A stretch of 64,000 bases of DNA, taken from positions 270 to 64,269 of the forward strand of contig JAVBOR010000018.1 in assembly GCA_031550325.1 (NCBI GenBank), given 5' to 3'. Of the stretch, positions 26,041 through 63,200 are shown piece by piece. Below the pieces are notes generated by a model, which was not told the origin of the DNA, searched no databases, and saw nothing but the letters and a program-made list of their open reading frames with translations. Origin of the DNA: Oscillospiraceae bacterium (GTDB taxonomy: Bacteria > Bacillota > Clostridia > Oscillospirales > UBA929). Position 1 is the stretch's first letter, and the number at the start of each line of letters is the position of its first letter. The position numbers and the translations under genes are program-made.

Positions 26041-26307
26041 CCCCTGTTCTTTTCCTGGATTTGCGTCGGCCTGACGCCGAAGGCGGCGGGTTCTTGCTGG
26101 ACCGAAAATCGAAAAAGATTGAACCACGAGGCTTTCACGGATTTACTCCGGGAAAGCCTTTCTCTGCAAACCGCCACAGCGGTTTGATTCTGCTCCCGCT
26201 TTGTCAAAGAACCAAATGTTCTTTGACAGCCAAACCCCCGCTTTGTCGAAGCATTGGTTCTTTGACAGCCCAAAAGGCCCTGGAATCGGAGTGATTCCAG
26301 GGCCTTT
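26041..26307 (-). repeat. Modular hairpin element, full copy (P-R-Q-S) plus extra P/Q hairpins
   Basis: TGTCAAAGAACCAAATGTTCTTTGACA at 26202-26228; Q at 26130-26158; S at about 26046-26120. Confidence 0.9.
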
Positions 26308-26339
26308 GACCAAAGAAGCTGTGCAAAGAAGTCGGAACT

Positions 26340-28580
26340 TTATTTGGTGACGGTGAAGGAGAAGACGTAGCTCGGGAACAGTTCGGCAAACTTGACGCCC
26401 TTGACAACGATCTTCTGTCCGGCGGCAAGAGAGTCGTACGCAACGGGAACCACGAGCGTGTTTTCCTGCTCGACGGTGGCGCTGTATACGGACGAGCCGA
26501 TGGTCACGGCGCCCGCAAACGCTGTTTTGCTGGAGATCTGCGCGTTGAAGCGGATGTTCAGCTGGCCGCTCTCGCTTCCGAAAGCAGTGGCCACCCAGAG
26601 ATCTTCGCTGTACTCCACGACAGTGATGTCGCAGGAGGAAGCATTGCCGTTTTCGCCGACGACGAGCTTGTATGTGCCGGCAGCGGGGGCGGCGGGGATG
26701 TTCAGGCGGATTTTGCCCTCGGAGGCGCTGACGATATTGCCCAGTCTGACGCCGTCAACGTCGAGGAACGCGTCCAGATTGGAGGTGTCCATGTTGTCGG
26801 CGTTATAGGTGATGTTCAGGTTTGCGCCCAGCGTGGCGACAATTTTGGGGGTGGACACGGCGACATCGGTGAGAACCGGGCCGTTGTAAATCGTGGCGCC
26901 TGTTTCCATGTCGCGCTCATACATGGAGAAGAACTCCCACATCTCCTGGGCGATGGGCTTGTAGTTCCAGTGAGCAAAGTTGTGCAAGCCGACGAGGCGG
27001 ATCAGGGGCATGCCGTCTTCGTTCTTCACGTCGCCGACAAGAGCTTCCCTGGTGCCGATCGTGGTCCATCTCTGTCCGTCCAGCGAGAGGCCGTAGTATC
27101 TGTTGAGGCTCAGATCAGCGGCCGCGCTCATGGGCAGGAAGTTCAGGGTCTGATAGGCCTTGATCTGGTTGAACAGGCTGCCGACCGGGATGGGTCTGTA
27201 GACGTCTCTGTCGCCGGCGCTAATGAACACGGGCAGGAACTGTCCTTCTTTTTTGTTGGCTTCGGCGACCACGATGTTGTTGGCAGAGCCGCCGACCGGG
27301 GCAGTGCCGCCTACGGCGGTGAGGATAGCGGCGTTTCTAAAGCCGTAGTTCAGGCTGCTGTTGGCGCCGGCGGACAGACCGCACATATACACCCTGCCGG
27401 GGTTGATCTGCGGGTATTTTTCCTGCAGGTGAGCGATCAGCGTCATGGTGCCGGCTTCGCCGAGCGCCGTGAAGGTGCCGCTGCCGCTGCCCTGCCACTC
27501 GGCAGAGACGGCGATGAAGCCATACTTGGCGGCCAGCTCAACCCAACCCGAGGTCTCCGGCTGGGTGCGGTTGTCGTTGCCGTTGCCGTGCATGAGCATC
27601 ACGAGCGGAACGGACTTCGCGGGCATATCCTTGGCGCTCAGGGGGATATACTCCTGCCACAGATTGTTGTTGTCTCCGCCGATGAGGTTCTGCTGCACGG
27701 CGGTAAACTCGATGCCGAGCGCGTCGAACATGGGATAAGAAACCAGTTCATAGGGCTCGGGGTAGTTCAGGGGGTTGGAGGTGTAGAACTCCTCGAGGTA
27801 GTTGTGGGTGCGGTAGTTTTTGCAGAAAATGTTCGCCCAGGCCTTTTCAAAGGCCACGGCCAGCGAGTCCTCTGCGCCGCCGACGGCGACGTTCTGGAAG
27901 GGCTCCGCGGAGTTGCTGTAAACGGTGACGCCGTCCAGGACGGTCTGCGTGTCGGTCGCGTTGGCGTTCTTGTAGTAGTCAACAAGGCCGGCGGCTCCGC
28001 CGGAAATATAGGCGGGGATGGGCTTTTCATAGGTCAAGCCTTCTTGGAGGTTGCCGCCGTAAGTCATAATGCCGGCAACCGGCCAGCTGTTCTGGCTGAC
28101 GTAGTTGTTGACAAAATCAGCGCCCTCGCCGATGCCGATGAACTTGATGTTGGTGCCGTTACCCGGCATGGCGTACCGAAGGATCTGCAGGTAGACTTCC
28201 TTGTCGGCTTCGCCGAAGGCGTCTCCCACGGGGTTGATGATGTACGCGTTGGTGGTGTATGTCTGTAAATGCGAGAAAATACCCATCTCGGCAAGCAGGT
28301 CATAGGCTTCCTGCTCGGTGTATTTTCCATCGCCGTAAATGTAATAGGAAGGCACGGTGCCGGGATAGCGGCCGGAGGGGGTGTTCAGGGCAGACGCGTT
28401 ATACCGGTAGATGGTTGTGTCGGTGATGTTGGGCAGAACGCCGAAGGTGACGCCTACGGGCAGTTCATATGCCGCAGCGTCTCCGCCCGAGGCAGCCGTG
28501 ACGGGCTGGGCGGAAAGCGTCAGAACAAACACTGCCAGAAGTGCTAGAGCCCATACTCTCATTTTCAAATTGGTCTTCAT
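26340..28580 (-). CDS. Secreted multidomain esterase (PHB depolymerase/LpqC-like alpha/beta hydrolase)
   Basis: Signal peptide; MHGNG, GLSAG (Ser), AGDRD (Asp), FAHW (His); C-terminal beta-rich domains. Confidence 0.8.
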   Translation of the reverse strand: MKTNLKMRVWALALLAVFVLTLSAQPVTAASGGDAAAYELPVGVTFGVLPNITDTTIYRYNASALNTPSGRYPGTVPSYYIYGDGKYTEQEAYDLLAEMGIFSHLQTYTTNAYIINPVGDAFGEADKEVYLQILRYAMPGNGTNIKFIGIGEGADFVNNYVSQNSWPVAGIMTYGGNLQEGLTYEKPIPAYISGGAAGLVDYYKNANATDTQTVLDGVTVYSNSAEPFQNVAVGGAEDSLAVAFEKAWANIFCKNYRTHNYLEEFYTSNPLNYPEPYELVSYPMFDALGIEFTAVQQNLIGGDNNNLWQEYIPLSAKDMPAKSVPLVMLMHGNGNDNRTQPETSGWVELAAKYGFIAVSAEWQGSGSGTFTALGEAGTMTLIAHLQEKYPQINPGRVYMCGLSAGANSSLNYGFRNAAILTAVGGTAPVGGSANNIVVAEANKKEGQFLPVFISAGDRDVYRPIPVGSLFNQIKAYQTLNFLPMSAAADLSLNRYYGLSLDGQRWTTIGTREALVGDVKNEDGMPLIRLVGLHNFAHWNYKPIAQEMWEFFSMYERDMETGATIYNGPVLTDVAVSTPKIVATLGANLNITYNADNMDTSNLDAFLDVDGVRLGNIVSASEGKIRLNIPAAPAAGTYKLVVGENGNASSCDITVVEYSEDLWVATAFGSESGQLNIRFNAQISSKTAFAGAVTIGSSVYSATVEQENTLVVPVAYDSLAAGQKIVVKGVKFAELFPSYVFSFTVTK

Positions 28581-29280
28581 CTGTTTTCTCCTCCTAAACT
28601 AATCTTGAGCGTGTTTTCGGGACTGTTGGCGGGTGTCCAGTCACCTCCTTAGTTCATAGCACCCATGTATACCAATACCATTCTTCCCTGCGCATACGGA
28701 CATCTATCTTTACTTTTCGCAGGCTGTTTTTACGCTCCGGCTTGAGCGGCCGGAGCAGGGCTTGTCAGGTTTTCTCTTGCGGGGCGGCTGCATACTCTGA
28801 GTCTTTATTAGCCGCGCCGAGGCACAACCAACCAACGCAAAACCTAGATGGTGGTGCGGCCGTCCCCGGGCGACTTGACGCCCGGATAGACCACATCCAA
28901 CGCAGTTTCGCACGTGCGCGGCTCTTTTTGACATGGGGTTTCCGCCGGGGCGGCAGTGTGGGAGTGCGGTTCCTTTCGCAATGGTTTTTTTGGTGACTTT
29001 TGATAAATTATAGCATATGGCTCAATAAAATACCAGCGGTTTTGTTAAAAAGGCAAAAAAGTACAGATAATGGCGACGACGGTGCGGCATGACCGTAATC
29101 GTTTGAAAGTACAATTTTTCCGTACAATACACCCAAAGCGCCGTTCTCCATTCCGTGCCGATAACAGAACGCGCGCGGCGGCGTGTCCGCCAAAAGGGAG
29201 GCGCTTGGAAAAATGAGGAAAAAGCGGGGCGTCCGGACTGAAGCGACGATGAATAATATGCATTCGTTGCGCAAGCGCAG

Positions 29281-29366
29281 TGTGGCTAAATCTTTATCGG
29301 CTTTCGGTGAGGCAGGAATCTGCCGGCAGCGCCGTCAGGCTCGACGCAAAAACCAATAAAGCCACG
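29281..29366 (+). repeat. Modular hairpin element, S module only
   Basis: CTTTATCGGCTTT...ATCTGCCGGCAGCGCCGTCAGGCTCGACGCAAAAACCAATAAAG. Confidence 0.8.
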
Positions 29367-29477
29367 GTCGCGGTGGGCCTATTTGAGAATGAACAAGAAA
29401 ATTTAGCTGATTTCCCGGTTTGTTAACACATTATTCATATTAATCTGATATCCTGAGATTTATCTTTTGGTTAGGAT

Positions 29478-32093
29478 GTGTTTCGGGTGCTTGTATTAAA
29501 AAACGTCGTCAAAGATTATGTTATGGGGGACCTAAAGGTCGAGGCGCTCAGAGGCATCGATTTGGCATTTCGGAAAAATGAGTTTGTATCTGTCCTCGGG
29601 CCTTCGGGATGCGGGAAAACCACGCTGCTCAACATCATCGGCGGACTGGACCGCTACAGCAGCGGAGACCTTTCGGTCAACGGCGTTTCCACCAAGAAGT
29701 ACAAGGACGGGGACTGGGACACCTATCGCAACCACTCCATAGGCTTTGTGTTTCAAACCTACAACCTGATCATGCATCAGACCGTATTGTCCAACGTAGA
29801 GCTTGCGCTTACGCTCTCCGGGGTTTCCAAATCAGAGCGCCGCAAGCGGGCAATCAACGCGCTCAAGCAGGTTGGACTTGGGGATCAGTTGGACAAGAAG
29901 CCCAATCAGGTCTCGGGCGGGCAGATGCAGCGCGTGGCCATCGCGCGGGCGCTGGTCAACAACCCGGAGATCCTGCTGGCAGACGAGCCGACCGGCGCGC
30001 TTGACTCGGAAACAAGCCTGCAGATCATGGAGATCCTCAAGGAGATCGCCAAGGACCGTCTGGTCATCATGGTCACGCACAATCCCGACATCGCCGAAAT
30101 GTACTCCACCCGCATCATCCGGCTGCTGGACGGCCTGGTCACTGACGACTCAAACCCCTATGCGATGGAGACTGAAATAGCCGCGCCCGCGTACCGGAAG
30201 CGGAAAAAGCCGCCCATGTCCTTTTTCACGGCGCTTTCGCTGAGCCTGAACAACCTGATGACCAAAAAGGCGCGCACGTTTTTGACCGCCTTTGCCGGCA
30301 GCATCGGCATCATCGGTATCGCGATGATCCTCGCGCTTTCCACCGGCGTGCAGGACTACATCGCCCGCGTAGAGGAGGACACGCTCTCCAGCTACCCGAT
30401 TTCCATCCAGAAGACCTCGCTGGACATCGGCGCGATGCTGAGCGCTGCGTCGGGGATGCGCACTGACGATGTCACACACGAGCTCGACAAGGTGTACTCC
30501 AACGATATCATGGGCAAGATGCTGTCCACGATGCTCTCGGAGCTGTCCACCAACGACCTGCAGGCCTTTAAGGCCTTTCTGGACAGTGAGGACAGCGGCA
30601 TGGCCGAGCTTGTCAATGATATACAGTACGGCTACGGCACGCAGATGAACATATACGCCTCAGACACGTCGGACGGCATTTTGCAGATTAACCCCAACTC
30701 GGTGTTCAAGGCGCTGGGTTTCTCGGGCGTCGGGGCAGCTTCGGCGTCCGGCGGGATGATGGCCGGGCTGAGCGGAATGGGCTCGATGTCGGGCTCAAAC
30801 GTCTGGCAGGAAATGCTGGGAAACAGTGATGTGCTGGCCGCGCAGTACGAGGTGATTGCCGGGCGGATGCCGGACGGCTACAATGAGGTTGTAATCATCG
30901 TGGATGAAAACAACGAGATTACCGACTTCACGCTGTACTCGCTCGGCCTGAAAGACCCCGAAGAGCTTGTGGACATGATGAAAACCCTCAGAGAGGGCGG
31001 GGAAGTCGAGACGCAGCAGACGGATTATAGCTATGACGAGCTCCTCTCCCTCACCTTCAAGCTGGTGCTGAACACCGATTACTACGAACGCACCGAGGAT
31101 ACCTGGGGCAGCCACAGCGAAAACGAGGCGTTTATGAAGAACGTCATTGATAACGCGACGACTGTCAAGGTCGTCGGAGTCCTGCGCCCTGCCGGAAACG
31201 CCGCGGTGGCCAACGTCAGTGGCGCCGTGGGCTACACTACGGGGCTGATGACGCACCTCATTAACGAAGTGAACAACAGCGAGATTGTCCGGCAGCAGAA
31301 GGAGCATCCCGAAACCGACGTGTTTACCGGAAAGCCGTTTGCCACCGGCGAGGAGGAGCAGGCCGAGTTTGACATCACCACGCTGCCGGAGGAGCAGCAG
31401 GCCTATCTGCAGACGCTGGACGAGGACGAGCTCAAAACGCTCCTGGAGAGCTATTCGGTCACCTCAAAGGCCACGTATGAGGAAAACCTGCAAAAGCTGG
31501 GCGCATCTGCTCTCGACAACCCCGACAGCATTAGCATTTTCCCCAGGGACTTTGAGTCCAAGGACCAGATCACCACGATCATCAACGACTACAATAAGCG
31601 CGTGACGGACGAGGACAAAGAGGAGATGGTCATTCAGTATACCGACCTTGTCGGCCTGATGATGTCCTCAGTCAGCACAATTATTAACGCCATCAGCTAT
31701 GTGCTCATCGCGTTTGTGTCCATCTCGCTCGTCGTATCCTCGATCATGATCGGCATCATCACCTATATCTCCGTGCTGGAGCGCACAAAGGAAATCGGCA
31801 TTCTGCGCAGCATTGGCGCGTCGAAAAAGGATATCTCCAGCGTGTTTAACGCCGAAACGCTCATTGTCGGGTTTGTGTCCGGCGTGCTGGGCATCGGGGT
31901 GACGCTGTTGCTGTGTATCCCCGCGAACCTGATTATTCATGCGCTGACCGATATTTCCGGCGTGGCCGCGCTGCCCATGGCGGGCGCAGTAATCCTCGTG
32001 GCCATCAGCATGGCGCTGACGTTTATCGCGGGGCTGATTCCCTCCCGGATCGCTGCCAAAAAGGATCCCGTGGTTGCGCTCAGAACCGAGTAA
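29478..32093 (+). CDS. MacB-like fused ABC transporter ATPase/FtsX permease
   Basis: GPSGCGKT, VSGGQ, LADEPTG, ERTKEIGILRSIG, PVVALR; exact start uncertain. Confidence 0.93.
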   Translation: MFRVLVLKNVVKDYVMGDLKVEALRGIDLAFRKNEFVSVLGPSGCGKTTLLNIIGGLDRYSSGDLSVNGVSTKKYKDGDWDTYRNHSIGFVFQTYNLIMHQTVLSNVELALTLSGVSKSERRKRAINALKQVGLGDQLDKKPNQVSGGQMQRVAIARALVNNPEILLADEPTGALDSETSLQIMEILKEIAKDRLVIMVTHNPDIAEMYSTRIIRLLDGLVTDDSNPYAMETEIAAPAYRKRKKPPMSFFTALSLSLNNLMTKKARTFLTAFAGSIGIIGIAMILALSTGVQDYIARVEEDTLSSYPISIQKTSLDIGAMLSAASGMRTDDVTHELDKVYSNDIMGKMLSTMLSELSTNDLQAFKAFLDSEDSGMAELVNDIQYGYGTQMNIYASDTSDGILQINPNSVFKALGFSGVGAASASGGMMAGLSGMGSMSGSNVWQEMLGNSDVLAAQYEVIAGRMPDGYNEVVIIVDENNEITDFTLYSLGLKDPEELVDMMKTLREGGEVETQQTDYSYDELLSLTFKLVLNTDYYERTEDTWGSHSENEAFMKNVIDNATTVKVVGVLRPAGNAAVANVSGAVGYTTGLMTHLINEVNNSEIVRQQKEHPETDVFTGKPFATGEEEQAEFDITTLPEEQQAYLQTLDEDELKTLLESYSVTSKATYEENLQKLGASALDNPDSISIFPRDFESKDQITTIINDYNKRVTDEDKEEMVIQYTDLVGLMMSSVSTIINAISYVLIAFVSISLVVSSIMIGIITYISVLERTKEIGILRSIGASKKDISSVFNAETLIVGFVSGVLGIGVTLLLCIPANLIIHALTDISGVAALPMAGAVILVAISMALTFIAGLIPSRIAAKKDPVVALRTE

Positions 32094-32144
32094 GCCTGTA
32101 TCAGGGCGCAGCCTGAAGAATCAGTCGCGCTCCCGTGCTTCGGA

Positions 32145-32340
32145 GGGATTGCGTCGCGCCAAAGAAGCCGCCGGGGTCCCCCTGCTGAACTGAAACTGCA
32201 AAGGATTTGTCCACAAGGCCCTCCGGATTCATTCCGAGAGGGCCTTTCGCTGCAAGTCGTCTCAACTGGTTAATCCGACCCGCGCTTTGTCAAAGTGCCG
32301 ACGGTTCTTTGGAGGCCCGGCGCGTCTTCGCAAAGACGCG
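32145..32340 (-). repeat. Degenerate full copy of the hairpin element (S-Q-R-P on the plus strand) plus T hairpin
   Basis: Q variant AAGGCCCTCCGGATTCATTCCGAGAGGGCCTT (32215-32246); TGTCAAAG...GGTTCTTTGG; CGCGTCTTCGCAAAGACGCG. Confidence 0.75.
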
Positions 32341-32479
32341 TTTCTTCGTTTTTTGCCGTGGGGTCGCAGTTGTTTTGTCCAAATAGGGCCTGCATTTGGC
32401 TTTACAACCGCTCCGCCGCGAGCTATAATAAACTGATAGAGACTGCGTGTCGAAATATGAGGATATGGAATGGTGATGG

Positions 32480-34645: not shown

Positions 34646-34654
34646 CGCAGGCTT

Positions 34655-34946
34655 TAGACTTGCAAAGAACAGGTTCTTTGACAAAGCGAGAGCAGGATCG
34701 CGTCTTTGCGAAGACGCGCAGAGTAAGGCGTTGCGGAAGTGAATACCGCAACGCCTTGTGATTTGCTCTTTTCAGAAAACAGGCGTCAGGCTCGACGTGG
34801 TTTTGCGCAAAGGAACGAAGAGGCGGACTTTGTTTACAGGCTGAAGGCTTTCACGGATTTACTCCGGGAAAGCCTTTCTCTGCAAACCGCCACAGCGGTT
34901 TGATTCTGCCCCCGCTCTGTCAAAAAACCAAAGGTTCTTGACAGAG
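34655..34946. repeat. Two opposed copies of the hairpin element between convergent genes
   Basis: Plus copy P-T-Q'-S (34655-34845) abuts minus copy P-R-Q (34846-34946), which is nearly identical to 26130-26230. Confidence 0.9.
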
Positions 34947-34948
34947 GC

Positions 34949-37084: not shown

Positions 37085-37185
37085 TGCCGGAGTTCAGGTC
37101 GTCCGGCGGGGACCGGTGCCGCCCTCAGCGTCAGGCTCGACATAAACCCCGAAAAGGTCTGGAGCGCGAAGGGTTTCTTTGACAT
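37085..37185 (+). repeat. Partial hairpin element (S module and 3' terminus)
   Basis: GCCGCCCTCAGCGTCAGGCTCGAC...GGGTTTCTTTGACA. Confidence 0.65.
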
Positions 37186-37250: not shown

Positions 37251-37441
37251 TTTGTCAAAGATCCTTCGGTTCTTTGACAAACGGGAGGGGGAAACGGTTT
37301 TGAGAAATGAATTCCCGAAACCGTTGTGGTTTATATTTTTCCTGGATTCTGTCCAGCAAGAACCTGACGCCTGTGGCGTCAGGCTCGACGCGAATCCAGG
37401 AAAAGGACGAGAGAGCGGGGGGCATTTTTGACAGGCTGAAG
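37251..37441 (+). repeat. Hairpin element copy lacking R (P-Q-S)
   Basis: Colinear with 39103-39312 and 62840-63048 apart from the R deletion; ends TTTTTGACAGGCTGAA. Confidence 0.92.
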
Positions 37442-38312: not shown

Positions 38313-39098
38313 ATGGAAATGAGTGACTATACCGAACTAAACGCCAAAACTATTGACGGCTGGGTGAAGGACGGCTGGGAGTGGGGCGTCCCGATCTCAC
38401 ACGAAGCCTATTGCAGCGCGGTGGCCGGGCAGTGGGACGTTTTTCTCACGCCCATCAGGAAGGTGCCGCACAGCTGGTTTGCGCCTTTTTTGCGCGGCGG
38501 GCGGCTGGACGGCGCAAAGCTGCTCGGGCTGGCCAGCGGCGGCGGGCAGCAGATGCCGATCTTTGCCGCCTTGGGCGCGGACTGCACCGTGCTGGATTAT
38601 GCCGACAGCCAGCTTGAGAGCGAGTTGATGGTGTCCGAGCGGGAGGGCTACGCCATCAACGTCGTCAAGGCCGACATGGCAAAGAGGCTTCCGTTTGAAG
38701 ACGCGAGCTTTGACCTGATTTTCCATCCGGTTTCCAACTGCTATGTGGAGGATGTATACCACGTCTGGAACGAGTGCTTCCGCGTGCTCAAGAAGGGCGG
38801 GGTGCTGCTTGCCGGAATGGACAATGGGCTCAACTTCCTGATAGACGATTTCTCGGCGCTCCCGATGCAAGTCCGCAACAAACTGCCGCACAATCCCCTA
38901 AAGGATCCCGAGCTATATCAAAAGTGCGTTGAGCGCGGCGAAGGAGTGCAGTTTTCGCATACGTTTGACGAGCAGATCGGCGGCCAGCTCAAGGCGGGGT
39001 TCGTTCTCAAGGACGTCTACGAGGACTCCAACAACGACCCGAACGCCATTGCCTATGGAATAGCGTCCTTTTGGGCCAGCCGAGCTGTGAAGGGCTGA
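38313..39098 (+). CDS. Class I SAM-dependent methyltransferase
   Basis: LGLASGGGQQ motif I, LPFEDASFD, RVLKKGG. Confidence 0.9.
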   Translation: MEMSDYTELNAKTIDGWVKDGWEWGVPISHEAYCSAVAGQWDVFLTPIRKVPHSWFAPFLRGGRLDGAKLLGLASGGGQQMPIFAALGADCTVLDYADSQLESELMVSEREGYAINVVKADMAKRLPFEDASFDLIFHPVSNCYVEDVYHVWNECFRVLKKGGVLLAGMDNGLNFLIDDFSALPMQVRNKLPHNPLKDPELYQKCVERGEGVQFSHTFDEQIGGQLKAGFVLKDVYEDSNNDPNAIAYGIASFWASRAVKG

Positions 39099-39100
39099 GC

Positions 39101-39490
39101 GTTGCCAAAGAACCTTCGGTTCTTTGGCAAAACGAGGGCAGGATCAAACCGCCCCAGCGGTTTGAAGGGAAACGGTTTCGAGAAATGAATTCCCGAAACC
39201 GTTGTGGTCCCTATTTATCCTGGATTCAGTCCAGCAAGAACCTGCCGCCTGCGGTGTCAGGCTCGACGCGAATCCAGAAAAAGGACGAAGGTGTAAAGCG
39301 CTTTTTTTGACAGTCAGAAGGAACCGGGTTCTTTGTAAGTGCCGGAACCGGATTAACCGTCGCGGGCGGTCTGCGGAGCATGACTTTGCGGGAGTGAATT
39401 GCGCGAAGCCATGCCATTCAGTCTTTCACGACTGTAACCCGAAGAAGGACGAGAGGGCGGGGAGTATCTTCCCGATCATTTGTAAAAGCC
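39101..39490 (+). repeat. Full hairpin element (39103-39312) followed by a degenerate tandem copy
   Basis: P-R-Q-S; the second copy keeps a Q variant with the GGAGTGAAT loop (39378-39414) and the AAGGACGAGAG 3' segment. Confidence 0.9.
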
Positions 39491-39492
39491 TA

Positions 39493-39523
39493 TTGACCTA
39501 AACCTGACTTAAGGGTTTATACT
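39493..39523 (+). promoter_or_regulatory. MerR-type promoter/operator
   Basis: TTGACC-19bp-TATACT with dyad TAAACC...GGTTTA across the spacer. Confidence 0.75.
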
Positions 39524-39634
39524 GATGGCTGCGCTGTGCCGGAGCGGTTTCCGAGTACGCAAGAACGGACAGCATGGCCTGGCGGCGGATCAGGAATACG
39601 TTGAAGATCGTAAATGGAGGGAGAGAACAAGCAC

Positions 39635-42019: not shown

Positions 42020-42070
42020 GCGCGTGTCTGCCTTTTCCCGGCGTTCTCCGCGCTCCTGAGCGTTTCTTTA

Positions 42071-42247
42071 CGCGTCTTCACAAAGACGCGATCCTGTCCC
42101 CGCTTTGTCAAAGAACCAAAGGTTCTTTGACAGCTTAAAAGCTTTCCCGGATTCATTTCGGGAAAGCTTTCTTTGTAAGCCGCCTCAGCGGTTTGATTCA
42201 ACTTTCGTTTTGTCAAAGAACTGATGTCCTTTGACAGCCTGAAGGGA
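42071..42247 (-). repeat. Hairpin element copy (P-R-Q, then P-T)
   Basis: Perfect TGTCAAAGAACC-AAA-GGTTCTTTGACA at 42106-42132; starts 1 nt after the kinase stop codon. Confidence 0.9.
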
Positions 42248-45850: not shown

Positions 45851-45990
45851 CCCTTCAGGCTGTCAAAGAACCAAAGGTTTTTTGACAGCCTGCGACGAAA
45901 CCCTTATGGATTAGTCTTTTTCGGGTTCCCGTCCACCAAGTCCCCGCCGGCCCAAGCGTCAGGCGCGACGCGAATGCCGAAAAAACGCGG
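45851..45990 (+). repeat. Hairpin element copy (P-S)
   Basis: CTTCAGGCTGTCAAAGAACCAAAGGTTTTTTGACAGCCTG and GCGTCAGGCGCGACGCGAAT. Confidence 0.85.
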
Positions 45991-46053
45991 ACGCGATGGA
46001 GCCTTCGCCCGTCATATACGGTGACATACAGTGCGCCGGCTGCCCGGAGCGGC

Positions 46054-49299: not shown

Positions 49300-49332
49300 C
49301 AAAATGCTCTGAGCCAAGAGGGGCGGGGACGC

Positions 49333-49425
49333 GCAAAGAGCCGCTTTCCCGGAGTGAACCCGTGAAAGCATTGTGTTTGGGTCTTTATCGGTTTTTGGTG
49401 AGGCAGGGACCTGCCGGCTCGCGCC
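49333..49425 (+). repeat. Partial hairpin element (Q plus half S)
   Basis: GCTTTCCCGGAGTGAACCCGTGAAAGC then CTTTATCGGTTTTTGGTGAGGCAGGGACCTGCCGGC. Confidence 0.8.
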
Positions 49426-55697: not shown

Positions 55698-56477
55698 ATG
55701 ATGAAAAAGAGAACGGGTACGATCGAGTTTTTATGCCTGGCGGCAATCGCCCCGCTCGTTTGCGCCGCGATATTTGCGTTTTGCCCCGGCGTGAGGGACA
55801 GTGTTTTTTCCTTGCCGCTGCTTGGCCTGCAGAGCATGGCTCCCTCTCTCGCGGCGGTCCTGGTCGTTGGGCAGATCCACGCCGCAAAAGGACTGACTGC
55901 GTTTTTAAGAGAAAAGTACTTATCCGGTATCAGCCTGAAACTTTGCCTGTCCGCGTTTTTTACACCGCTTGTACTATTGCTTGTTTCAAAGACATTGGCT
56001 GTTTTTTTTCTGGAGGGTGATATTAAGTTCTTCCTGCCCGACGCGAGCAAAATGCTCATTATTCTTTGGGCGCTGATCGCCGAAGAGCTGGGATGGAGAG
56101 GTTTTTTGCAGGAAAGGGGGGAGGCAAAGCTTGGTCCGGTTCTTACGCCGCTGGTGGTCGGCGTCGTTTGGGGCCTGTGGCATGTTTTCTTTTTCCTGTC
56201 GGGGGCCATGGAGGCTCCGTTTTTCTGGCTTGTTCTGGGCTGTGTGTTTGAAAGCTACGGGTATTTTGTAATCACAAAGCTTTCGGGGGGGAATATCGTC
56301 CCAGCGAGTATATGGCACTTTTCAGGGAACCTGTTTATCCATATCTTTGGACTGAATGTGGCAGACAGCCATGGCGGCCATCTCCCTTACGCGGTCATGA
56401 CCCTTACATACGGCCTTTGTGTTTTGGGCTTTCTGGCCTATTATCGCGCGCTGCCCAGAAAGGGAAGACCCGTGTGA
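55698..56477 (+). CDS. CPBP (CAAX/Abi) intramembrane metalloprotease
   Basis: EELGWRG, WGLWH, WHF..N. Confidence 0.9.
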   Translation: MMKKRTGTIEFLCLAAIAPLVCAAIFAFCPGVRDSVFSLPLLGLQSMAPSLAAVLVVGQIHAAKGLTAFLREKYLSGISLKLCLSAFFTPLVLLLVSKTLAVFFLEGDIKFFLPDASKMLIILWALIAEELGWRGFLQERGEAKLGPVLTPLVVGVVWGLWHVFFFLSGAMEAPFFWLVLGCVFESYGYFVITKLSGGNIVPASIWHFSGNLFIHIFGLNVADSHGGHLPYAVMTLTYGLCVLGFLAYYRALPRKGRPV

Positions 56478-56607
56478 TGCGCCCCCCGGCTCAAACAAGC
56501 AGGCCCTTTCCCACCGCAAATATATTTTTTAGAGGTAGCCCGCAAAGCGGTAGTTTGGTACCATGCAGGCAATGTGTGCTGAGCATGACGGAAATGGGGA
56601 AGTCAAC

Positions 56608-57180
56608 ATGAACACCTTGGTTTTATGCGACAAAGAGGGCGCAGATTTCTGCGGACAGTCTCTTGCGGCGCGGATTGAGACGCTGGTCAGAAGCGCCGGA
56701 GGCGATGTAAAGACCGTCATGCTGGACGGCGACGCAATCGAGCCCTGTGTGGGCTGCTTAGGCTGTTGGGTGAAGACGCCGGGGTTGTGCGTGATGACGC
56801 GCGACGGCGTCAACGAGATCGCCGGACGCGAAATACGCGCCGATGTCGTTGTTTTGGTTTCCCGAATGACTTATGGAGGCTACAGTCACGACATCAAGGC
56901 GTTTTTGGATCGCTCAATCCCCAACATCCTGCCGCTGTTTGAAATCTATCGGGGAGAGATGCATCACAAGCCCCGGTACGAGCGTTTTCCGTGCCTGATT
57001 TCGGTTATGTACGGTGAGGCCACCCCCAAAGAGCTGCAAACCTTTGCCTCCCTAGCTGAACGAAACGCCCTGAACATGAGACCGCCGAAGCATTTTGTGT
57101 TCGCCTGCCAGGACGCCGGCGAGATGGAGCAAGCGATGCGCGCGCTGGAAAAGGTTTTGTCCGCACAGGTGCCGTCATGA
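56608..57180 (+). CDS. Flavodoxin-like iron-sulfur flavoprotein
   Basis: CVGCLGCW.KTPG.C, YGGYS..IK.FLDR. Confidence 0.85.
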   Translation: MNTLVLCDKEGADFCGQSLAARIETLVRSAGGDVKTVMLDGDAIEPCVGCLGCWVKTPGLCVMTRDGVNEIAGREIRADVVVLVSRMTYGGYSHDIKAFLDRSIPNILPLFEIYRGEMHHKPRYERFPCLISVMYGEATPKELQTFASLAERNALNMRPPKHFVFACQDAGEMEQAMRALEKVLSAQVPS

Positions 57181-57812
57181 CCGATATTGCAGCGATTAAC
57201 GCGAGCCCCAAGTCAACGGACAGCGCCACTAAGGCGCTCATTCGGCAAATCGGCGGCATGACCGGCGGCGAAATCCGGGTCACGCAAGCGCTGCAGCTTC
57301 TCGGCGACGAGAACAGGGAGGCCGCTCTGGCGGGGCTGTTGAGGGCCGACGCGCTGCTGATCGCATTTCCGCTGTATGTCGACGCGCTTCCTGCCCCGCT
57401 TGTCAAGGTTCTTACGCTGCTCGAGCGGGCAGCGTTCGGGGCGGGGAAGCTGCCGAAGATGTACGCCCTTGTCAACTGCGGGTTTTATGAGGCCGGGCAC
57501 AATCAAATCGCGCTGGACATCGTGGAGAACTTTTGCGCCCGCGCCGGGTTGCCCTGGGGCTATGGCCTCGGCATCGGGAGCGGAGGCTTTGCTGTCCAGG
57601 ACAAGAACATGGCCAAGGGGCCTGCCGCCAACGTCTATGCCGCTTTGCGCGAACTTGCCGACGCGATGCTGCGCGGCGGCGATGGCCAAAACAGGTTCGC
57701 CACGCCCCGGATCCCTCGGTTTGTGTATAAGCTCGGCGGGAACATGATGTGGTACCGAATGTCGAAGAAGAACGGCGTCCGGCGAGACCTCGGCGCCAGA
57801 CCGCATCTGTGA
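57177..57812 (+). CDS. Flavodoxin-like protein lacking the Cys cluster
   Basis: INASPK, FPLYVDALP, NCGFYE; ATGA overlap with the previous gene. Confidence 0.82.
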   Translation: MTDIAAINASPKSTDSATKALIRQIGGMTGGEIRVTQALQLLGDENREAALAGLLRADALLIAFPLYVDALPAPLVKVLTLLERAAFGAGKLPKMYALVNCGFYEAGHNQIALDIVENFCARAGLPWGYGLGIGSGGFAVQDKNMAKGPAANVYAALRELADAMLRGGDGQNRFATPRIPRFVYKLGGNMMWYRMSKKNGVRRDLGARPHL

Positions 57813-57908
57813 GCTCGGCGCCAGGAGAGGGGCGGTGGCGCGCGGCCACGTTCCGGTCCGGGGGCACAAGCGGTCACGCAAAATGCGGTGCAGAGGGGCG
57901 GATATCCT

Positions 57909-58826
57909 ATGGACAAGATCACCGAGAGAATACTGGCCGATTTGGGGGATACGGCGCTGCTGGACAAGCTGCTCAGCCTACCGGGGTCCGACCTCAACTC
58001 CTTTCTGCTCAAATTGTTTGATCTGCAGGCAGCCGGCGTGGCTCCCCGGGCGCTGCTGAAGGCATATGAGCAAAACCGCTTTGCCCTGCCGAGCGCCATA
58101 GACCCGGCGGAGTATCACAGGCTGGAGGCCCATCTGCTGACGCTGGCCGGACAGATGGGGATGAGGGGCGTCCTTCTTTCTCCGGCGGCGCCTGTGGGCA
58201 GCTGCTCGGCTTTTGGCTATGTGGCGCAGAACAATGTCGTCAGCGCTTTGCGGGGGAGCGAGATCCTTTCCGACCCGACGAATATGCTGGCCATCTATGT
58301 GGCCGGTCAGCTCAAGCGAAAGGCGCTGGACAACGAGACGCCGCAGTACTTTTGCACGACCGCAAGGGTTTTGCGGGCGCAGAAGTTCCCCGAGGGGATG
58401 TTCAGCCACTTCGGGCTTTTCTGCATCGTCTCCTCCGGCAAGGACAAGGGCTCCTATTCCTGCGAAAGGGCGATGCTCATCAAGCATATGGAGTTCTATA
58501 AACAGCTTCTGCGGGCTGAATCAGGCGCAGGGCTCTCCCTCGCGCTGCGGAAACGAAGCGGGTATACGGACGGTGACGGCTTCTTCACAAGTATCGGAGG
58601 GGTCATCCGGGACGAGCTGCCCGACGTTCCGATTTCCATCGATGAGGGCGACCAAGGGAACGGCTACTACAAAGGCGTCAACTTCAAACTGAACGTTGAA
58701 AATGACGGGGCTAGCCTTGAGGTGGGGGACGGCGGTTTTGTCGACTGGATACAGAGCATGACTGGAAACGGGCGCGAGCGCTGCCTGATCAGCTGCATCG
58801 CCATTGACAGATACATGCTGCTTTGA
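57909..58826 (+). CDS. Hypothetical protein with class II aminoacyl-tRNA-synthetase-like catalytic motifs
   Basis: RVLRAQ...FSHF (motif-2-like), YY.G..F, EVGDGG..DW, ER.LIS..AIDR (motif-3-like). Confidence 0.6.
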   Translation: MDKITERILADLGDTALLDKLLSLPGSDLNSFLLKLFDLQAAGVAPRALLKAYEQNRFALPSAIDPAEYHRLEAHLLTLAGQMGMRGVLLSPAAPVGSCSAFGYVAQNNVVSALRGSEILSDPTNMLAIYVAGQLKRKALDNETPQYFCTTARVLRAQKFPEGMFSHFGLFCIVSSGKDKGSYSCERAMLIKHMEFYKQLLRAESGAGLSLALRKRSGYTDGDGFFTSIGGVIRDELPDVPISIDEGDQGNGYYKGVNFKLNVENDGASLEVGDGGFVDWIQSMTGNGRERCLISCIAIDRYMLL

Positions 58827-58835
58827 CAGTCAAAT

Positions 58836-58867
58836 GGGGCAGGCAAACCGTTAGGTTTGCCTGCCCC
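58836..58867. terminator. Bidirectional terminator-like hairpin
   Basis: GGGGCAGGCAAACC-gtta-GGTTTGCCTGCCCC between convergent stops. Confidence 0.75.
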
Positions 58868-58898
58868 GATGGCGTTCATACGTAATTTGCGCTGCCCG

Positions 58899-61103
58899 TT
58901 AACCCAGGAGCTGCTGCACGGCTACGATCATTCCTGCAAATACGATCGAGACCATCGAGAGCAGCTTGATGAGGATGTTGATCGAAGGGCCGCTTGTGTC
59001 TTTAAACGGATCGCCGACAGTGTCGCCAACGACGGCGGCCTTATGGCTATCAGAGCCTTTTCCGCCCAGATTCCCCGCCTCGACATATTTCTTGGCGTTG
59101 TCCCAGGCGCCTCCGGCGTTGGCCATCATGACGGCGAGAACAAAACCGGTAACCGTGGCGCCGGCAAGCAGGCCGATGACGCCGCCGACTCCGAGCAGAA
59201 GCCCTACGACAATCGGCGCGATAATGGCGATAAGGGTGGGCAGAACCATTTCCTTCTGGGCTGCACGGGTGCAGATGTCTACGCAGGTGGTGTAGTCAGC
59301 CTCGGCCTTTCCGGCCATGAGGCCGGTGATCTCTCTGAACTGACGGCGGACTTCCACAACAATCTTGCCCGCAGCGCGGCCGACCGCTTCCATGGTCATG
59401 GCGGAGAACAGGAACGGCAGCATGCCGCCAATAAAGAGGCCAATGAGCACTTTGGGATTGGTCAGTTGGCCTTCGAGCCCTTGCAGGAGAGAGGCGGCGA
59501 CCACTGTGCCCTCATCCGCAATTTTCTCTACCAGAAGCTTCACCTGATCGATGTAAGCGGCGATCAGCGCAAGGGCCGTCAGCGCGGCAGAGCCGATCGC
59601 AAAGCCTTTGCCTGTCGCTGCGGTGGTGTTGCCCAGCGAGTCGAGCGCGTCTGTGCGCTCACGAACTTCTTCAGGCATGCCCGACATCTCGGCAATGCCG
59701 CCGGCGTTGTCGGCAATCGGTCCGTACGCGTCGGTGGCAAGCGTGATGCCGAGCGTGGACAGCATGCCAACGGCAGAAATACCTATGCCGTAAAGGCCCA
59801 TGTTAAACGCATTGGCGTCTCCGCTGAATCCGCCGCAAAGAGCAAAGCTGGCGAATACGCTGGCGCCGACAACCAGCACAGGGATGACCGTGGACTTCAT
59901 GCCGAGCGCAAGTCCGCCGATGATCACGGTCGCCGGGCCGGTTTTGGTTGTCTCAGAGAGTTTTTGCGTGGGTTTGTAGGCGTCGGCGGTGAAATACTCC
60001 GTAAAGTACCCGATGAGCACGCCCGCTGCCAATCCCGACAACACAGCGCCGTATACGCCGAGGTGTTCCGAACCCATGAGGAAGTAGATCACCGGGAAGG
60101 CCAGAACGGCGATGAGTCCCGCGGCAATGTAAACGCCTCTGCGCAGTGCGCTGAGAAGCACCTTCTGATCGGTGTTCTCGCCTGAGCGGACAAACCAGGT
60201 GCCGATCAGCGAGCAAAGAGTGCCAAGTCCGGCAAGGACCATCGGCACGATCGCGCTGCGGTACGGACTCATGCCGCCGCCAAAGCTGAACATGGCGGCA
60301 GCCGCGAGGGAAATGGTGGCGACGATGGAGCCGACATAGGACTCGTACAGGTCAGCGCCCATGCCCGCAACATCACCGACGTTATCGCCAACGTTGTCGG
60401 CAATGACCGCCGGGTTGCGCGGATCGTCTTCGGGAATGCCGGCCTCAACCTTGCCAACAAGGTCGGCGCCGACGTCGGCAGCTTTGGTAAAGATACCGCC
60501 GCCAACGCGGGCAAACAGCGCCATGGAGGACGCGCCCATGCCAAAGGTCAGCATCGCGGAAGAAATCTCAGTGATCTGCAGCGTCGGATTGGCCAGGTAT
60601 TCGGCTCCGGAAAAGAAGACGTACCGAAGCAGATAGTACCAGATGGACAGGTCAAGCAGGCCGAGGCCAACCACGACAAAGCCCATAACCGAGCCCGCGG
60701 AAAAGGCGACGCGAAGGCCTCTGTTCAGCCCTTCGCTTGCGGCCTGGGCGGTACGGCAGTTCGCGGCCGTGGCGACCCGCATGCCGATAAAGCCCGAAAG
60801 GCCGGAGAAAAAGCCGCCTGTAATGAATGCAAACGGAACAAACGGATTGAGCACTTTGAAGCCGTACGCCAGAACCGCAAGAATGATGAACAGACCGATG
60901 AAGAAGAGTCCCACGCCTTTATACTGACGCTTTAAGTACGCGTTGGCGCCCTTCCTGATGCTGTCGGATATACGGCTCATCACTTCGCTGCCCTTGGATA
61001 CTTTCATGACCTTTTTTGCCTGGAAAAATGCGAAGATCAGTGCGAGGATGGATGCCACCGGGGTAATGGCAAATAAGGCGTCTACAAGCTGCTCAGAAAC
61101 CAT
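58899..61103 (-). CDS. hppA: Membrane-bound K+-dependent (probably Na+-translocating) pyrophosphatase
   Basis: DVGADLVGKVE, DNVGDNVGD, DAYGP..DNAGG, GNTTAA (Ala variant), DTVGDPFKD. Confidence 0.93.
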   Translation of the reverse strand: MVSEQLVDALFAITPVASILALIFAFFQAKKVMKVSKGSEVMSRISDSIRKGANAYLKRQYKGVGLFFIGLFIILAVLAYGFKVLNPFVPFAFITGGFFSGLSGFIGMRVATAANCRTAQAASEGLNRGLRVAFSAGSVMGFVVVGLGLLDLSIWYYLLRYVFFSGAEYLANPTLQITEISSAMLTFGMGASSMALFARVGGGIFTKAADVGADLVGKVEAGIPEDDPRNPAVIADNVGDNVGDVAGMGADLYESYVGSIVATISLAAAAMFSFGGGMSPYRSAIVPMVLAGLGTLCSLIGTWFVRSGENTDQKVLLSALRRGVYIAAGLIAVLAFPVIYFLMGSEHLGVYGAVLSGLAAGVLIGYFTEYFTADAYKPTQKLSETTKTGPATVIIGGLALGMKSTVIPVLVVGASVFASFALCGGFSGDANAFNMGLYGIGISAVGMLSTLGITLATDAYGPIADNAGGIAEMSGMPEEVRERTDALDSLGNTTAATGKGFAIGSAALTALALIAAYIDQVKLLVEKIADEGTVVAASLLQGLEGQLTNPKVLIGLFIGGMLPFLFSAMTMEAVGRAAGKIVVEVRRQFREITGLMAGKAEADYTTCVDICTRAAQKEMVLPTLIAIIAPIVVGLLLGVGGVIGLLAGATVTGFVLAVMMANAGGAWDNAKKYVEAGNLGGKGSDSHKAAVVGDTVGDPFKDTSGPSINILIKLLSMVSIVFAGMIVAVQQLLG

Positions 61104-61320
61104 ACATCTCTCTCCCTATGTTTTTTTTAGGAATGACCAAAAATCCCCTACTTATTATACATACAATAATTTGAAAAGCAAGGGCAAATTTGAACAAACT
61201 GTGAATTGGGCTAAAATTCTGGCCCTGCCGCGCTTTTTGCGCCCTGCCGCACTTTTTGCGCCACGCCGCGCCCTGAAAAGAGTAAAAAACGGGGAAAGGG
61301 TTTCACTGAAAAGTCAACCG

Positions 61321-61349
61321 TTGTCATCCGGTCGCCCGCGATGTATAAT
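61321..61349 (+). promoter_or_regulatory. sigA promoter
   Basis: TTGTCA-17bp-TATAAT with extended TG. Confidence 0.75.
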
Positions 61350-61400
61350 GAACTCTATGAAGCAAAGCCGCACAGTATGATCGAAAAGGAGCTGCTGATC

Positions 61401-62837
61401 ATGGCGATGAAACCCTTTGCACTGGATTACGATCCCGGGAGCATAGAGGCGGGCATTCTGCATTTTGGGGTTGGAAATTTCCACAGGGCGCATCAGGCAT
61501 ACTATACAAACAAGCTTCTCTCACAGGACGGCCAGAAGGGCTGGGGCATATGCGGCGCCATGATTCTGGACAGAGACGAAAAAATATTTCGCGGGCTCAA
61601 GGCGCAGGGCGGGCAATATGGCCTGACCGTTTTTGGGCGTTCGGGAGACGACGAGTACCATCAGATCGGCGCCCTGACGGAACTGTACTGGGCCGGGGAA
61701 AATGCGGCAGCCATCATCGATAAGGTGGCGGAAGCTTCGATAAAGATCATCACCCTCACGATTACCGAGGGCGGCTACAATCTCGCGGGCGGGACCGGAG
61801 AGTTTGATTTTTCCCGCGAGGACATTCTTTACGATTTGAGGTTCCCCGAAAGACCGCGGACTGTCTTTGGCTATGTTGCGGCCGGGCTGCGCAAAAGGAT
61901 GGAGGCAAACGCCGGGCCGGTTGCCATCCTGAGCTGCGACAACCTTGTGCACAACGGGAACACCTGCAAGAAGTCGTTTCTCTCGTTTTTGGAGAGGGCC
62001 GACGCGCTGCTCTGGAGTTGGGCAAAGGAGCATGTCAGCTTCCCGAACTGCATGGTCGACCGCATCACGCCCGCGACCCTGCCGGACGACATCTCCAAGT
62101 TCTCTTCGCTGAACGGACACGAGGATCTTGTCCCTGTGTACTGCGAGGATTATGTGCAATGGGTGATCGAGGACGATTTTCCCGCCGGGCGGCCTGCCTG
62201 GGAGCGCGTCGGGGTTGAGTTTACCGACGACGTGTCGAAATATGAGTCCATGAAGCTGGGATATGTCAACTCCACACACCAAATGCTGTCGTTTCCAGGG
62301 CTTCTGGCGGGTTACCGCAGAGTGGACGAGGCCCTTGACGATAAGCGTATTGCCTCCTATTTGCGGCGGTACATGGACGAGGATGTGACGCCCTATCTGG
62401 CACCGCCGCCGAACACCAGCCTGGACACGTATAAGGCGACTTTTATGGAGCGCCTGAAGAACAAAGCAGTCAGCGACCAGCTCTCCCGGCTTTGCTTTGA
62501 CGCCGCCAATAAAATCCCGGTGTACATGGCGCCGACCATGAGCGCCATGCTTCGTGCCGGCGCGGAGCTGAAGCGCGTCGCGTTTTTGGTGGCCGCTTAT
62601 CGGTTGTATCTGCGCCGGGGCAGTGACGACAAAGGCGTTGCCTATGCGGTGGACGATCCCAAACTCACGAAAAGCGATTGGGTGCTGATTGGCGGGGACG
62701 AGCAGGACTTTCTGGGCCTGTCCTGCTTTGGCGGCCTGCGGCTGGCGGACTCGCCGCGTTTCGTAGCGCTCTATCTGGAAAGCTGCCAAAGCGTCGAGGA
62801 AAAGGGCGTTCTGGCGACAATCGAGGGACTTTTATAG
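61401..62837 (+). CDS. Mannitol dehydrogenase family (mannitol 2-DH/fructuronate reductase-like)
   Basis: HFGVGNFHRAHQA, TITEGGY, SCDN, MVDRITP, QWVIEDDF. Confidence 0.92.
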   Translation: MAMKPFALDYDPGSIEAGILHFGVGNFHRAHQAYYTNKLLSQDGQKGWGICGAMILDRDEKIFRGLKAQGGQYGLTVFGRSGDDEYHQIGALTELYWAGENAAAIIDKVAEASIKIITLTITEGGYNLAGGTGEFDFSREDILYDLRFPERPRTVFGYVAAGLRKRMEANAGPVAILSCDNLVHNGNTCKKSFLSFLERADALLWSWAKEHVSFPNCMVDRITPATLPDDISKFSSLNGHEDLVPVYCEDYVQWVIEDDFPAGRPAWERVGVEFTDDVSKYESMKLGYVNSTHQMLSFPGLLAGYRRVDEALDDKRIASYLRRYMDEDVTPYLAPPPNTSLDTYKATFMERLKNKAVSDQLSRLCFDAANKIPVYMAPTMSAMLRAGAELKRVAFLVAAYRLYLRRGSDDKGVAYAVDDPKLTKSDWVLIGGDEQDFLGLSCFGGLRLADSPRFVALYLESCQSVEEKGVLATIEGLL

Positions 62838-63200
62838 TTTGTCAAAGAACCCGCGGTTCTTTGACAAAACGAGAGCCGGATCAAACCACTGCGGCGGTTT
62901 GAAGGGAAACGGTTTTGAGGAATTAATTCCCGAAACCGTTGTGGTTCATATTCTTCCTGGATTCAGTCCAGCAAGAACCTGCCGCCTGCGGCTTCAGGCT
63001 TGACGTGAATCCAGAAAAAAGACGAAGGCGTAAAGTGCTTTCTTGACAGTCTGATCAAACCGCTTCGGCGGTTTGCAAAGAAAGGCTTTCCCGGAGTGAA
63101 TCCGTGAAAGCCTTTTGTTTCAATTCTTTGCGTAAACCCAGTTGGGCAAGGGCCTGCCGGCTGGTGCCGTCAGGCCCTGACATGAAAACCGAAAAAGGAA
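62838..63200 (+). repeat. Full hairpin element (62840-63048) plus tandem R-Q-S copy
   Basis: Begins 2 nt after the stop; high identity to 39103-39312 by eye. Confidence 0.92.

Follow-up and report, generated by a model that had tools for sequence, protein, structure and literature searches.

Hairpins of four kinds, here called P, R, Q and S, recur along a 64,000-nucleotide stretch of an Oscillospiraceae bacterium genome (assembly GCA_031550325.1, contig JAVBOR010000018.1, positions 270 to 64,269; hereafter the window), and all four are consecutive modules within one repeat of about 212 nt. We regard it as probable that they are parts of a MITE (miniature inverted-repeat transposable element) spread by an IS1182-type transposase, with stems kept for transposition and copies that decay once inserted. 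The repeat has a definite anatomy and high abundance and ends in inverted repeats; hairpins are duplicated where it inserts, an insertion sequence with matching ends resides in the same genome, the stems covary, and constraint falls only on those variants that have been propagated.

Module anatomy and covariation of the stems

The modules stand in the fixed order P-R-Q-S-right end, and hairpin stems occupy 124 of the 212 columns of this short element, which is taken as non-coding. The P module has the consensus TGTCAAAGAACC-nnn-GGTTCTTTGACA, followed by a linker; its left arm is the left terminal inverted repeat and its right arm an internal inverted copy of that repeat. Between P and Q sits R, a hairpin with an 8-bp stem and a 4-nt loop that an earlier, first-pass annotation of the window had not used, and which occurs with alternative 8-bp stems of identical geometry (R1, CAAACCGC-nnnn-GCGGTTTG; R2, CGCGTCTT-TGTG-AAGACGCG). 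Q combines a 14-pair stem with the apex GGAGTGAATCC. S is a compound hairpin in which a GTCCAG/CTCGAC stem and the internal loop CAAGAA lie between the outer stem and the inner stem, CCTGCCGCC/GGCGTCAGG. The purine-rich right end contains a small GCGC-AAA-GCGC hairpin with a T-run and terminates in TTTTTTGACAG. The ends of the whole element are the inverted repeats (T)CAGRCTGTCAAAGAA...TTnTTTGACAGYCTG(A), which read CTGTCAAAGAA...TTnTTTGACAG in subfamily 1 and are perfect in the youngest group, subfamily 2 (CAGACTGTAGACAAA...TTTGTCTACAGTCTG), with 39 copies at least 93% identical to their own consensus. The subfamilies are mosaics of module types. When RNAalifold was run on a raw MAFFT alignment of 125 copies, R, Q and S emerged only in part, because module types in different registers blur the alignment; the secondary structure was annotated by hand.

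An nhmmer profile built from 125 copies detected 498 full or partial copies in the 2.04-Mb, 69-contig genome, covering 64 kb (3.1%), with 21 copies lying in the window. The reference copy with its parts, and the further copies and fragments of the window, are as follows.

39102..39312 (+): reference full copy of about 212 nt, subfamily 1, with left inverted repeat, P, R, Q, S and right end TTTTTTTGACAG (nhmmer model 2-209, E = 1.7e-55)
39103..39129 (+): P hairpin with both arms altered (TGCCA.../...TGGCA); left arm is the left terminal inverted repeat
39145..39164 (+): R hairpin CAAACCGC-CCCA-GCGGTTTG
39170..39203 (+): Q hairpin, type Q1, apex GAAATGAATTC
39215..39282 (+): S compound hairpin, with GTCCAG/CTCGAC stem (conserved C.C mismatch), CAAGAA internal loop, outer stem, and inner stem CCTGCCGCC/GGYGTCAGG (conserved C.T mismatch)
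39283..39315 (+): right-end module and right terminal inverted repeat ...GCGCTTTTTTTGACAGTC
39321..39429 (+): degenerate second P-R-Q fragment, including the GCATG...CATGC hairpin at 39378 (model 10-120, E = 1.7e-6)
62839..63050 (+): full copy, subfamily 1 (E = 1.4e-56)
63052..63219 (+): R-Q-S copy without P, adjoining the copy at 62839..63050 and including the Q hairpin at 63084
26036..26229 (-): full copy with P, R1, Q2 and S (nhmmer)
37252..37435 (+): full copy without the R module (nhmmer)
37101..37184 (+): S and right-end fragment only (nhmmer)
34662..34840 (+): copy with R2 and Q3 stems and an internal S deletion, including the Q hairpin at 34725
34843..34943 (-): P-R-Q fragment, adjoining the copy at 34662..34840 at its Q hairpin (nhmmer)
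32116..32311 (-): diverged full copy, including the hairpin at 32215
14500..14738 (-): cluster of one long copy (model 49-212) and Q-type fragments (nhmmer)
42059..42237 (-): two neighbouring fragments, P-R and P-R-Q (nhmmer)
29277..29388 (+): S and right-end fragment only (nhmmer)
45897..45999 (+): S fragment, with a solo P hairpin 5' of it at 45861-45890 (nhmmer)
49326..49419 (+): fragment from Q through the left part of S (nhmmer)

All the hairpins cited in the first-pass annotation are present, exactly or with an offset of 1-2 bases. The P arms are indeed changed on both sides at 39103-39129 (TGCCAAAGAACC-TTC-GGTTCTTTGGCA, against the usual form found in the window at 62840 with loop CGC, at 42106 with loop AAA and at 26202), yet the right-end repeat of the same copy retains TGACA; the P loop is free, as had been proposed, at 0.33 bit per position. 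Q hairpins occupy 63083-63113 (AAGGCTTTC/GAAAGCCTT), 39170-39203 (AACGGTTTCG/CGAAACCGTT) and 34725-34757 (AAGGCGTTGC/GCAACGCCTT), while 32215-32246 is a Q module on the opposite strand and 39378-39414 a degenerate Q copy. To call these Q stems unrelated was too strong: within the window they have the inner CTTTC/GAAAG half in common and differ mostly in the outer 4-6 pairs, wholly different Q stems being found only between genera. The outer stems of S do differ (TTTTCCTGGATTC/GAATCCAGGAAAA versus CTTTATCGGTTTTC/GAAAACCGATAAAG) around the core GTCCAGCAAGAACCTGCCGCC-TGC-GGCGTCAGGCTCGAC.

Over all copies, 85-91% of the cells in P, R and Q and 72-80% of those in the S stems form Watson-Crick pairs, with two to four distinct Watson-Crick pairs at many pair columns. 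The same P-R-Q-S architecture, built with different stems, is found in four other genomes (G001, G009, G012 and G004), representing three further genera of the family. There, P takes the forms CGATGACAAAC/GTTTGTCATCG or CGCTGACAAAC/GTTTGTCAGCG, Q has stems such as GGATCCGCAG/CYGCGGATCC and GCGGTTCGAGG/CCCCGAACCGC under an almost unchanged apex, the outer stem of S reads TTTTTCACT/AGTGAAAAA, and R in G009 has passed from CAAACCGC/GCGGTTTG to CAAGCCGC/GCGGCTTG by point compensation. In a structure-blind MAFFT alignment of 25 cross-genus copies, 79.0% of cells were paired, against 66.8 +/- 0.6 in shuffled data (0 of 500 shuffles reached the observed value) and 31-52% with partners slid; 43 of the 62 pairs were altered on both sides, and the covariation score was 0.298 versus 0.115. 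A hand count from the table gives about 64 different two-sided pair alleles in the 25 sequences; this sets a minimum for the compensatory events without recourse to a tree, and inter-copy conversion cannot raise it.

On a FastTree phylogeny of 95 copies less than 88% identical, parsimony placed 147 same-branch changes from one Watson-Crick pair to another at true partners, versus 2-12 at partners shifted by one to three columns, and most branches altered a single pair per helix (75 branch-by-helix cases). Close relatives differing at exactly two stem columns, taken from a minimum spanning tree, differed at partner columns in 21 of 91 cases, where about 5% would be expected (p = 2e-9). It is thus confirmed that the stems stay complementary while their sequence changes, both within the genome and across related genera. 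The first-pass view that structure is conserved beyond sequence holds under the phylogeny-aware tree control as well as under the conversion-proof lower bound of two-sided alleles, so the covariation is not lost when phylogeny and gene conversion are accounted for.

Level at which the stems are constrained

The variants of the two homogeneous subfamilies separate what happens to a copy after insertion from what is passed on. Variants seen in a single copy are about as frequent in stems (1.06%) as outside them (1.28%; ratio 0.83, p = 0.33), whereas those common to at least two copies, taken as having passed at least one round of copying, amount to 0.71% in stems versus 4.05% elsewhere (ratio 0.18, p = 3e-31). 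Since private variants ignore the stems and shared ones are roughly fivefold rarer there, the constraint lies on propagating copies and not on residents. Resident copies decay regardless of pairing and copy-producing lineages retain their stems, which is the signature of a cis requirement for propagation and not that of a function for the host at individual loci.

The first-pass annotation had instead taken the conserved structure to indicate a single-stranded function, as RNA or ssDNA. In its fullest form this would make the element, or its Q or S parts, a structured RNA serving the host at each locus, as a terminator or insulator cassette, a stabiliser of 3' untranslated regions or a small RNA, whose Q loop an RNA-binding protein would recognise. 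Very strong folding (z = -7.6 versus shuffles), the location of most copies downstream of genes, the GCGC-AAA-GCGC hairpin and T-run of the right-end module, and the conservation across genera of the Q apex and of the S core, the latter 85% identical between species whose flanks do not align, would all suit such a role. Nevertheless, we hold it to be very unlikely. Elements show no orientation bias relative to neighbouring genes (88 co-oriented versus 66 anti-oriented, p = 0.09; 28 versus 21 for full copies), and the two strands fold equally well (-54.9 and -56.4 kcal/mol). Wobble pairs are not in excess on the element strand: one-sided stem changes comprise 82 of the G:T/T:G type versus 99 of the A:C/C:A type in close comparisons, and 137 versus 187 on the tree, where the excess comes from the outer stem of S alone, the least secure part of the alignment. 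Rfam 15 gave no match over the window at gathering thresholds and none even at E <= 1 over 39050-39620. Private mutations fall in stems as readily as elsewhere, the element is patchily present within the family, and the position downstream of genes is accounted for by insertion at terminator hairpins, as described below. A functional RNA or a single functional strand thus finds no support here, and of the protein-recognised loop that went with it only the part concerning Q remains plausible: its apex RGARTRAATYC persists across four genera and carries about 1.4-1.6 bits per position, compared with the free loop of P. Judged by this conservation, the Q apex would be the best candidate for a sequence-specific contact.

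The similarity of the S core is a separate observation. It is about 85% identical between genomes G001 and G000, two species of one genus, while the 4.85 kb of flanking genes give no DNA match at E <= 1e-10, which may reflect either horizontal exchange or a constraint far above that on genes.

Paired changes could also arise in palindromes as a by-product of mutation, if template switching or hairpin-templated repair transfers the sequence of one arm to the other, with no selection involved. Ten private Watson-Crick doubles, where fewer than one would be expected from independent changes, hint that some such process may occur; one-sided changes lack strand bias, and in the rare P variants TTGGACA, TTTAACA and TTTGGTA the change in one arm is matched in the other with no alteration of the right-end repeat. 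However, specific mismatches persist in many copies, namely the C.T of Q (156 of 337), the C.T of the inner S stem (182 of 264) and the C.C of the middle S stem (178 of 225), and in the cross-genus rows the last two positions are unpaired in 17 of 24 and 22 of 24 cases, respectively. Such persistence argues against efficient arm-to-arm copying, which would erase the mismatches. Private mutations are not depleted in stems, although repair would predict depletion, and close comparisons contain 280 one-sided disruptions versus 21 compensated doubles. As a general explanation, copying between arms thus appears highly doubtful.

Hairpin targets and a probable IS1182-family partner

Direct repeats of 24-45 nt flank 8 of the 15 testable copies of the young subfamily 2, and each of them is a hairpin (folding free energy -13 to -37 kcal/mol) located 0-6 nt from the element ends; among older copies such a duplication is still visible at only 3-4 of 40. 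The duplicated targets include unique terminator-like hairpins as well as P1, R1, Q-type and inner S hairpins of older copies, and at R, Q and P hairpins copies can be seen directly to have inserted into others and duplicated the hairpin. Fragments tend to end at the 3' foot of a hairpin (model positions 64, 103-104 and 182), and both this and the nested clusters arise because insertion targets the hairpins of older copies. Likewise, 134 of 312 elements (43%) lie in convergent spacers, against the 15% expected from the share of such spacers among all spacers (p = 2e-32), and divergent spacers are depleted, because insertion occurs at terminator hairpins. The distribution is patchy, with the element in 4 of the 30 family genomes examined and 3 of 9 genera, and together with the 39 near-identical copies this pattern speaks for a presumably recent mobility.

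Hairpins with a Q-like apex also stand alone outside elements at 17 sites (e.g., C24:36604, C31:30874, C47:35619 and C18:8203), where the apex YCCC-GGAGTRAATCC-GGGR caps long perfect stems that are unrelated in sequence; these hairpins frequently adjoin an element and serve as insertion targets. About eight to ten of the 17 are convincing, and those with two apex mismatches may be chance terminators. A scan of genome contigs for the 16-mer GGCGTCAGGCTCGACG returned just chance matches, in unrelated GC-rich genomes.

The nested insertions would open another route to stem diversity, in which the wholly different stems (R1, R2, R3, some of Q and the outer stem of S) would be hairpins captured or swapped through nested insertion and target duplication, forming chimeras. 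It would fit the mosaic subfamilies, the fragment ends at the hairpin feet, the duplications seen at R, Q and P, and the lack of any common stem sequence among R1 (CAAACCGC), R2 (CGCGTCTT) and the G001 form (GCCGC), which have the same geometry. On the other hand, the linkers on either side of R and Q are conserved across types, the tree shows mostly single-pair events per helix and branch (the 75 cases above), R in G009 changed by plain point compensation, the Q apex is conserved regardless of its stem, and the avoidance of stems by shared variants is not accounted for. Capture is therefore unlikely to lie behind the covariation as a whole; it probably adds to the diversity of modules (R1, R2 and the R form of G001) rather than being the main cause.

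A candidate for the enzyme is an IS1182-family transposase encoded in the same genome, which scores 378.9 bits on NF033551 (cut-off 270) and has the domains DUF772 (PF05598), DDE_Tnp_1 (PF01609) and DDE_Tnp_1_6 (PF13751). Its insertion sequence lies outside the window.

C11, first ~135 nt (reverse strand), and C15:1-1403: IS1182-family insertion sequence of about 1.5 kb; the contig ends overlap by 35 nt

The termini of the insertion sequence, TCAGCCTGTCAAAAAAG...CTTTCTTTGACAGGCTGA, match subfamily 1 of the small element; at the contig ends C11/C15 they read TCAGCCTGTCAAA...TTTGACAGGCTGA. Its left end is a 13-bp hairpin of its own before a TATAAT box, and flanking the insertion sequence on either side is the 19-nt hairpin GAGGACACAATGTGTCCTC, part of an A5-hairpin-T5 terminator. 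The MITE is assigned to an IS1182-type transposase because the ends match and the same hairpin duplication is found; on the basis of these common termini and this footprint, the small element is most likely a MITE moved in trans by the IS1182-family DDE transposase.

Other mobilising enzymes were considered and rejected. The only rve-domain gene of the genome, on C44, belongs to an IS3-type element inserted within a MITE copy and was dismissed as a partner of the family. This element (C44:14590-16605, outside the window) has two overlapping open reading frames, an rve domain and the ends TTAAACTGTACCC...GGGTACACTTTAA, and interrupts S in a copy of subfamily 2, with GCAAGAA on one side and CCTGCCGCC on the other. 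Inverted-repeat pairs 0.6-3.5 kb apart that enclose an open reading frame turned out to be ordinary genes between two elements. Membership among REP/REPIN-RAYT or IS200/IS605-type elements does not apply, the element having inverted repeats and target duplications. A single Y1 gene occurs in the genome (109 bits), which by its similarity we take to be an ordinary IS200 tnpA, and G009, G012 and G004, all of which carry the element, yielded no Y1 gene. The Y1 gene (C52:9560-10118, locus L174:660-1219, outside the window) runs off the contig end, and about 120 nt upstream of the left-end hairpin of this IS200, right after the stop codon of the neighbouring gene, stands an R-Q fragment without P.

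In the scheme that we favour, the transposase would pick its targets by shape, so that the element lands at the foot of a hairpin, which may be a terminator or belong to an older copy, and this target hairpin is duplicated in its entirety on either side of the element. Copies with broken stems would not found new copies, and the P, R, Q and S stems would consequently stay complementary; compensated changes would build up along lineages of source copies, while inserted copies would be free to decay. The stems may act as folded DNA, as an extruded cruciform or a transient single strand, needed by a shape-reading IS1182-type transposase, and might serve either to recruit it or to bend the 212-bp element so that its ends meet, with the conserved Q apex as a possible sequence-specific contact. 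One may go further and suppose, tentatively, that the four hairpins form a shape code read by the transposase. Such a code is suggested by the conserved irregularities of the stems (the C.T and C.C mismatches) and by the persistence of the Q apex RGARTRAATYC across four genera, and an enzyme that targets extruded hairpins would also need them inside the element, for recruitment, bending or marking of the substrate. If true, this possible but doubtful extension would provide a cis-acting DNA secondary-structure requirement for a DDE transposon, and it would account for the recurrence of such hairpin-rich MITEs in many phyla.

Several points weigh against the main explanation, that of a MITE moved by an IS1182-type transposase. 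The insertion sequence and the MITE have only about 12-17 nt of termini and the footprint in common, and R, Q and S are absent from the insertion sequence, so that descent by internal deletion is unsupported. A comparison of filled with empty orthologous sites in G001, of the same genus, found flanks that do not align at the DNA level, only the elements matching. It should also be noted that the tree is only approximate owing to module mosaicism. The singleton test has limited power (75 stem versus 45 non-stem events) and is compatible with a constraint of up to about 40% on residents; singletons in a metagenome assembly can include consensus errors, and shared variants could also spread via inter-copy conversion. 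Finally, the excess of private doubles noted above is not accounted for by a simple model of free decay, unless they derive from unsampled source variants.

Some further observations concern the ends of the element and its possible derivatives. One of them, recorded for 39252-39260 in the window and for the equivalents in all copies, is that TTGACA, the sigma-70 -35 consensus, faces outward at both element ends and is present in the inner P arm; with such a motif at both termini insertions could create hybrid promoters. Solo P hairpins flanked by CAGGC/GCCTG and reading CAGGCTGTCAAAGAACCnnnGGTTCTTTGACAGCCTG occur at 45861-45890 in the window and, outside it, at C30:1408, C19:18080 and C33:5075; they resemble the left and right terminal repeats fused head to head, and could be minimal elements or products of excision or junction formation. 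Another solo P-type hairpin, TGTCCAAGAATCAAAGGTTCTTGGACA, lies just downstream of the IS1182-family insertion sequence. A related repeat, found outside the window at C21:218, C24:1032, C28:8625, C32:29630 and C42:9921, has the P2-like hairpin TGTAGACAAAnnnnnTTTGTCTACA ahead of a different body, AAAACGATGATAAAGTGATYGGCTCTGTGGAGCC..., and may represent a sister family or another R type (GGCTC-TGTG-GAGCC).

Significance and comparison with known systems

If the proposed explanation is right, the covarying hairpin set is the cis architecture of an abundant selfish element and not an undiscovered RNA gene, and covariation screens for RNA discovery in genomes of this kind will be swamped by elements like these. 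Comparing private with shared variants offers an inexpensive means of separating what the host needs at each locus from what the element needs in order to spread. Little is known of how the IS1182 family works, and the present genome provides both an insertion sequence and a MITE family with whole target hairpins duplicated, together with a natural series of stem and loop mutants by which experiments on shape-dependent transposition could be guided.

Among systems with similar target choice, IS1630 of Mycoplasma fermentans, a member of the IS30 family, reportedly inserts at inverted repeats or terminators, and the target inverted repeats that it duplicates vary in length and sequence (Calcutt et al. 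1999). It differs in being autonomous and in its IS30 transposase with an rve domain, whereas the present element is a MITE and the sole rve gene of the genome belongs to the unrelated IS3-type element. BOX of pneumococcus, the BIMEs of E. coli and the Correia elements of Neisseria are intergenic repeats of hairpin modules in variable combinations, often beside terminators, and are in this respect alike, although they have no sequence relationship to the present family, follow other target rules (TA for Correia) and rely on other or unknown mobilising enzymes. Repeats of these types have been reviewed (PMC3184786, PMC2229807).

Closer parallels exist for the upkeep of the stems. In the bcr1 or group A repeats of the Bacillus cereus group, compensatory changes maintain the fold (Klevan 2007, Kristoffersen 2011, reviewed in PMC3184786), and bcr1 is likewise a short (about 155 bp), heavily folded, mobile intergenic repeat with compensatory base-pair changes in a Gram-positive host. 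Unlike the present element, with its whole-hairpin duplications and no pointer to RNA, bcr1 has 5-bp target duplications and known transcription, and its fold has been argued to matter at the RNA level. In REPINs the pairing of the spacer is kept through common compensatory changes, and selection has been argued to act on the replicating unit (PMC3116915). The REP-RAYT system and the present family are thus alike as abundant non-autonomous hairpin elements with compensatory changes and a case for selection on the replicating unit, but REPINs lack terminal inverted repeats and target duplication and depend on a Y1 (HUH) single-strand transposase, whereas here the ends and footprint agree with those of a DDE insertion sequence.

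Hence, compensatory upkeep of hairpins (bcr1, REPINs; PMC3184786, PMC3116915) and the targeting of stem-loops (IS1272) are already known; a four-hairpin modular MITE, the duplication of hairpins by an insertion sequence and a MITE alike, and a constraint limited to propagated variants are less familiar. IS1272, an IS1182-family insertion sequence of Staphylococcus, targets stem-loops without common sequence, and in a pathway sketched by its authors the entire stem-loop would be duplicated (PMC5678879). IS1272 and its family (PMC5678879, PMC4923244) have in common with the present system an NF033551 transposase with DUF772, DDE_Tnp_1 and DDE_Tnp_1_6, terminal inverted repeats and stem-loop targets. 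IS1272, however, replaces its target stem-loop with no duplication, whereas the insertion sequence and the young MITEs described here keep the hairpin on both sides, and no derivative like the present one, non-coding, 212 nt long and with four hairpins inside, has been described for IS1272. Whole-hairpin duplication, the outcome that the IS1272 authors only sketched as possible, is what the present genome contains.

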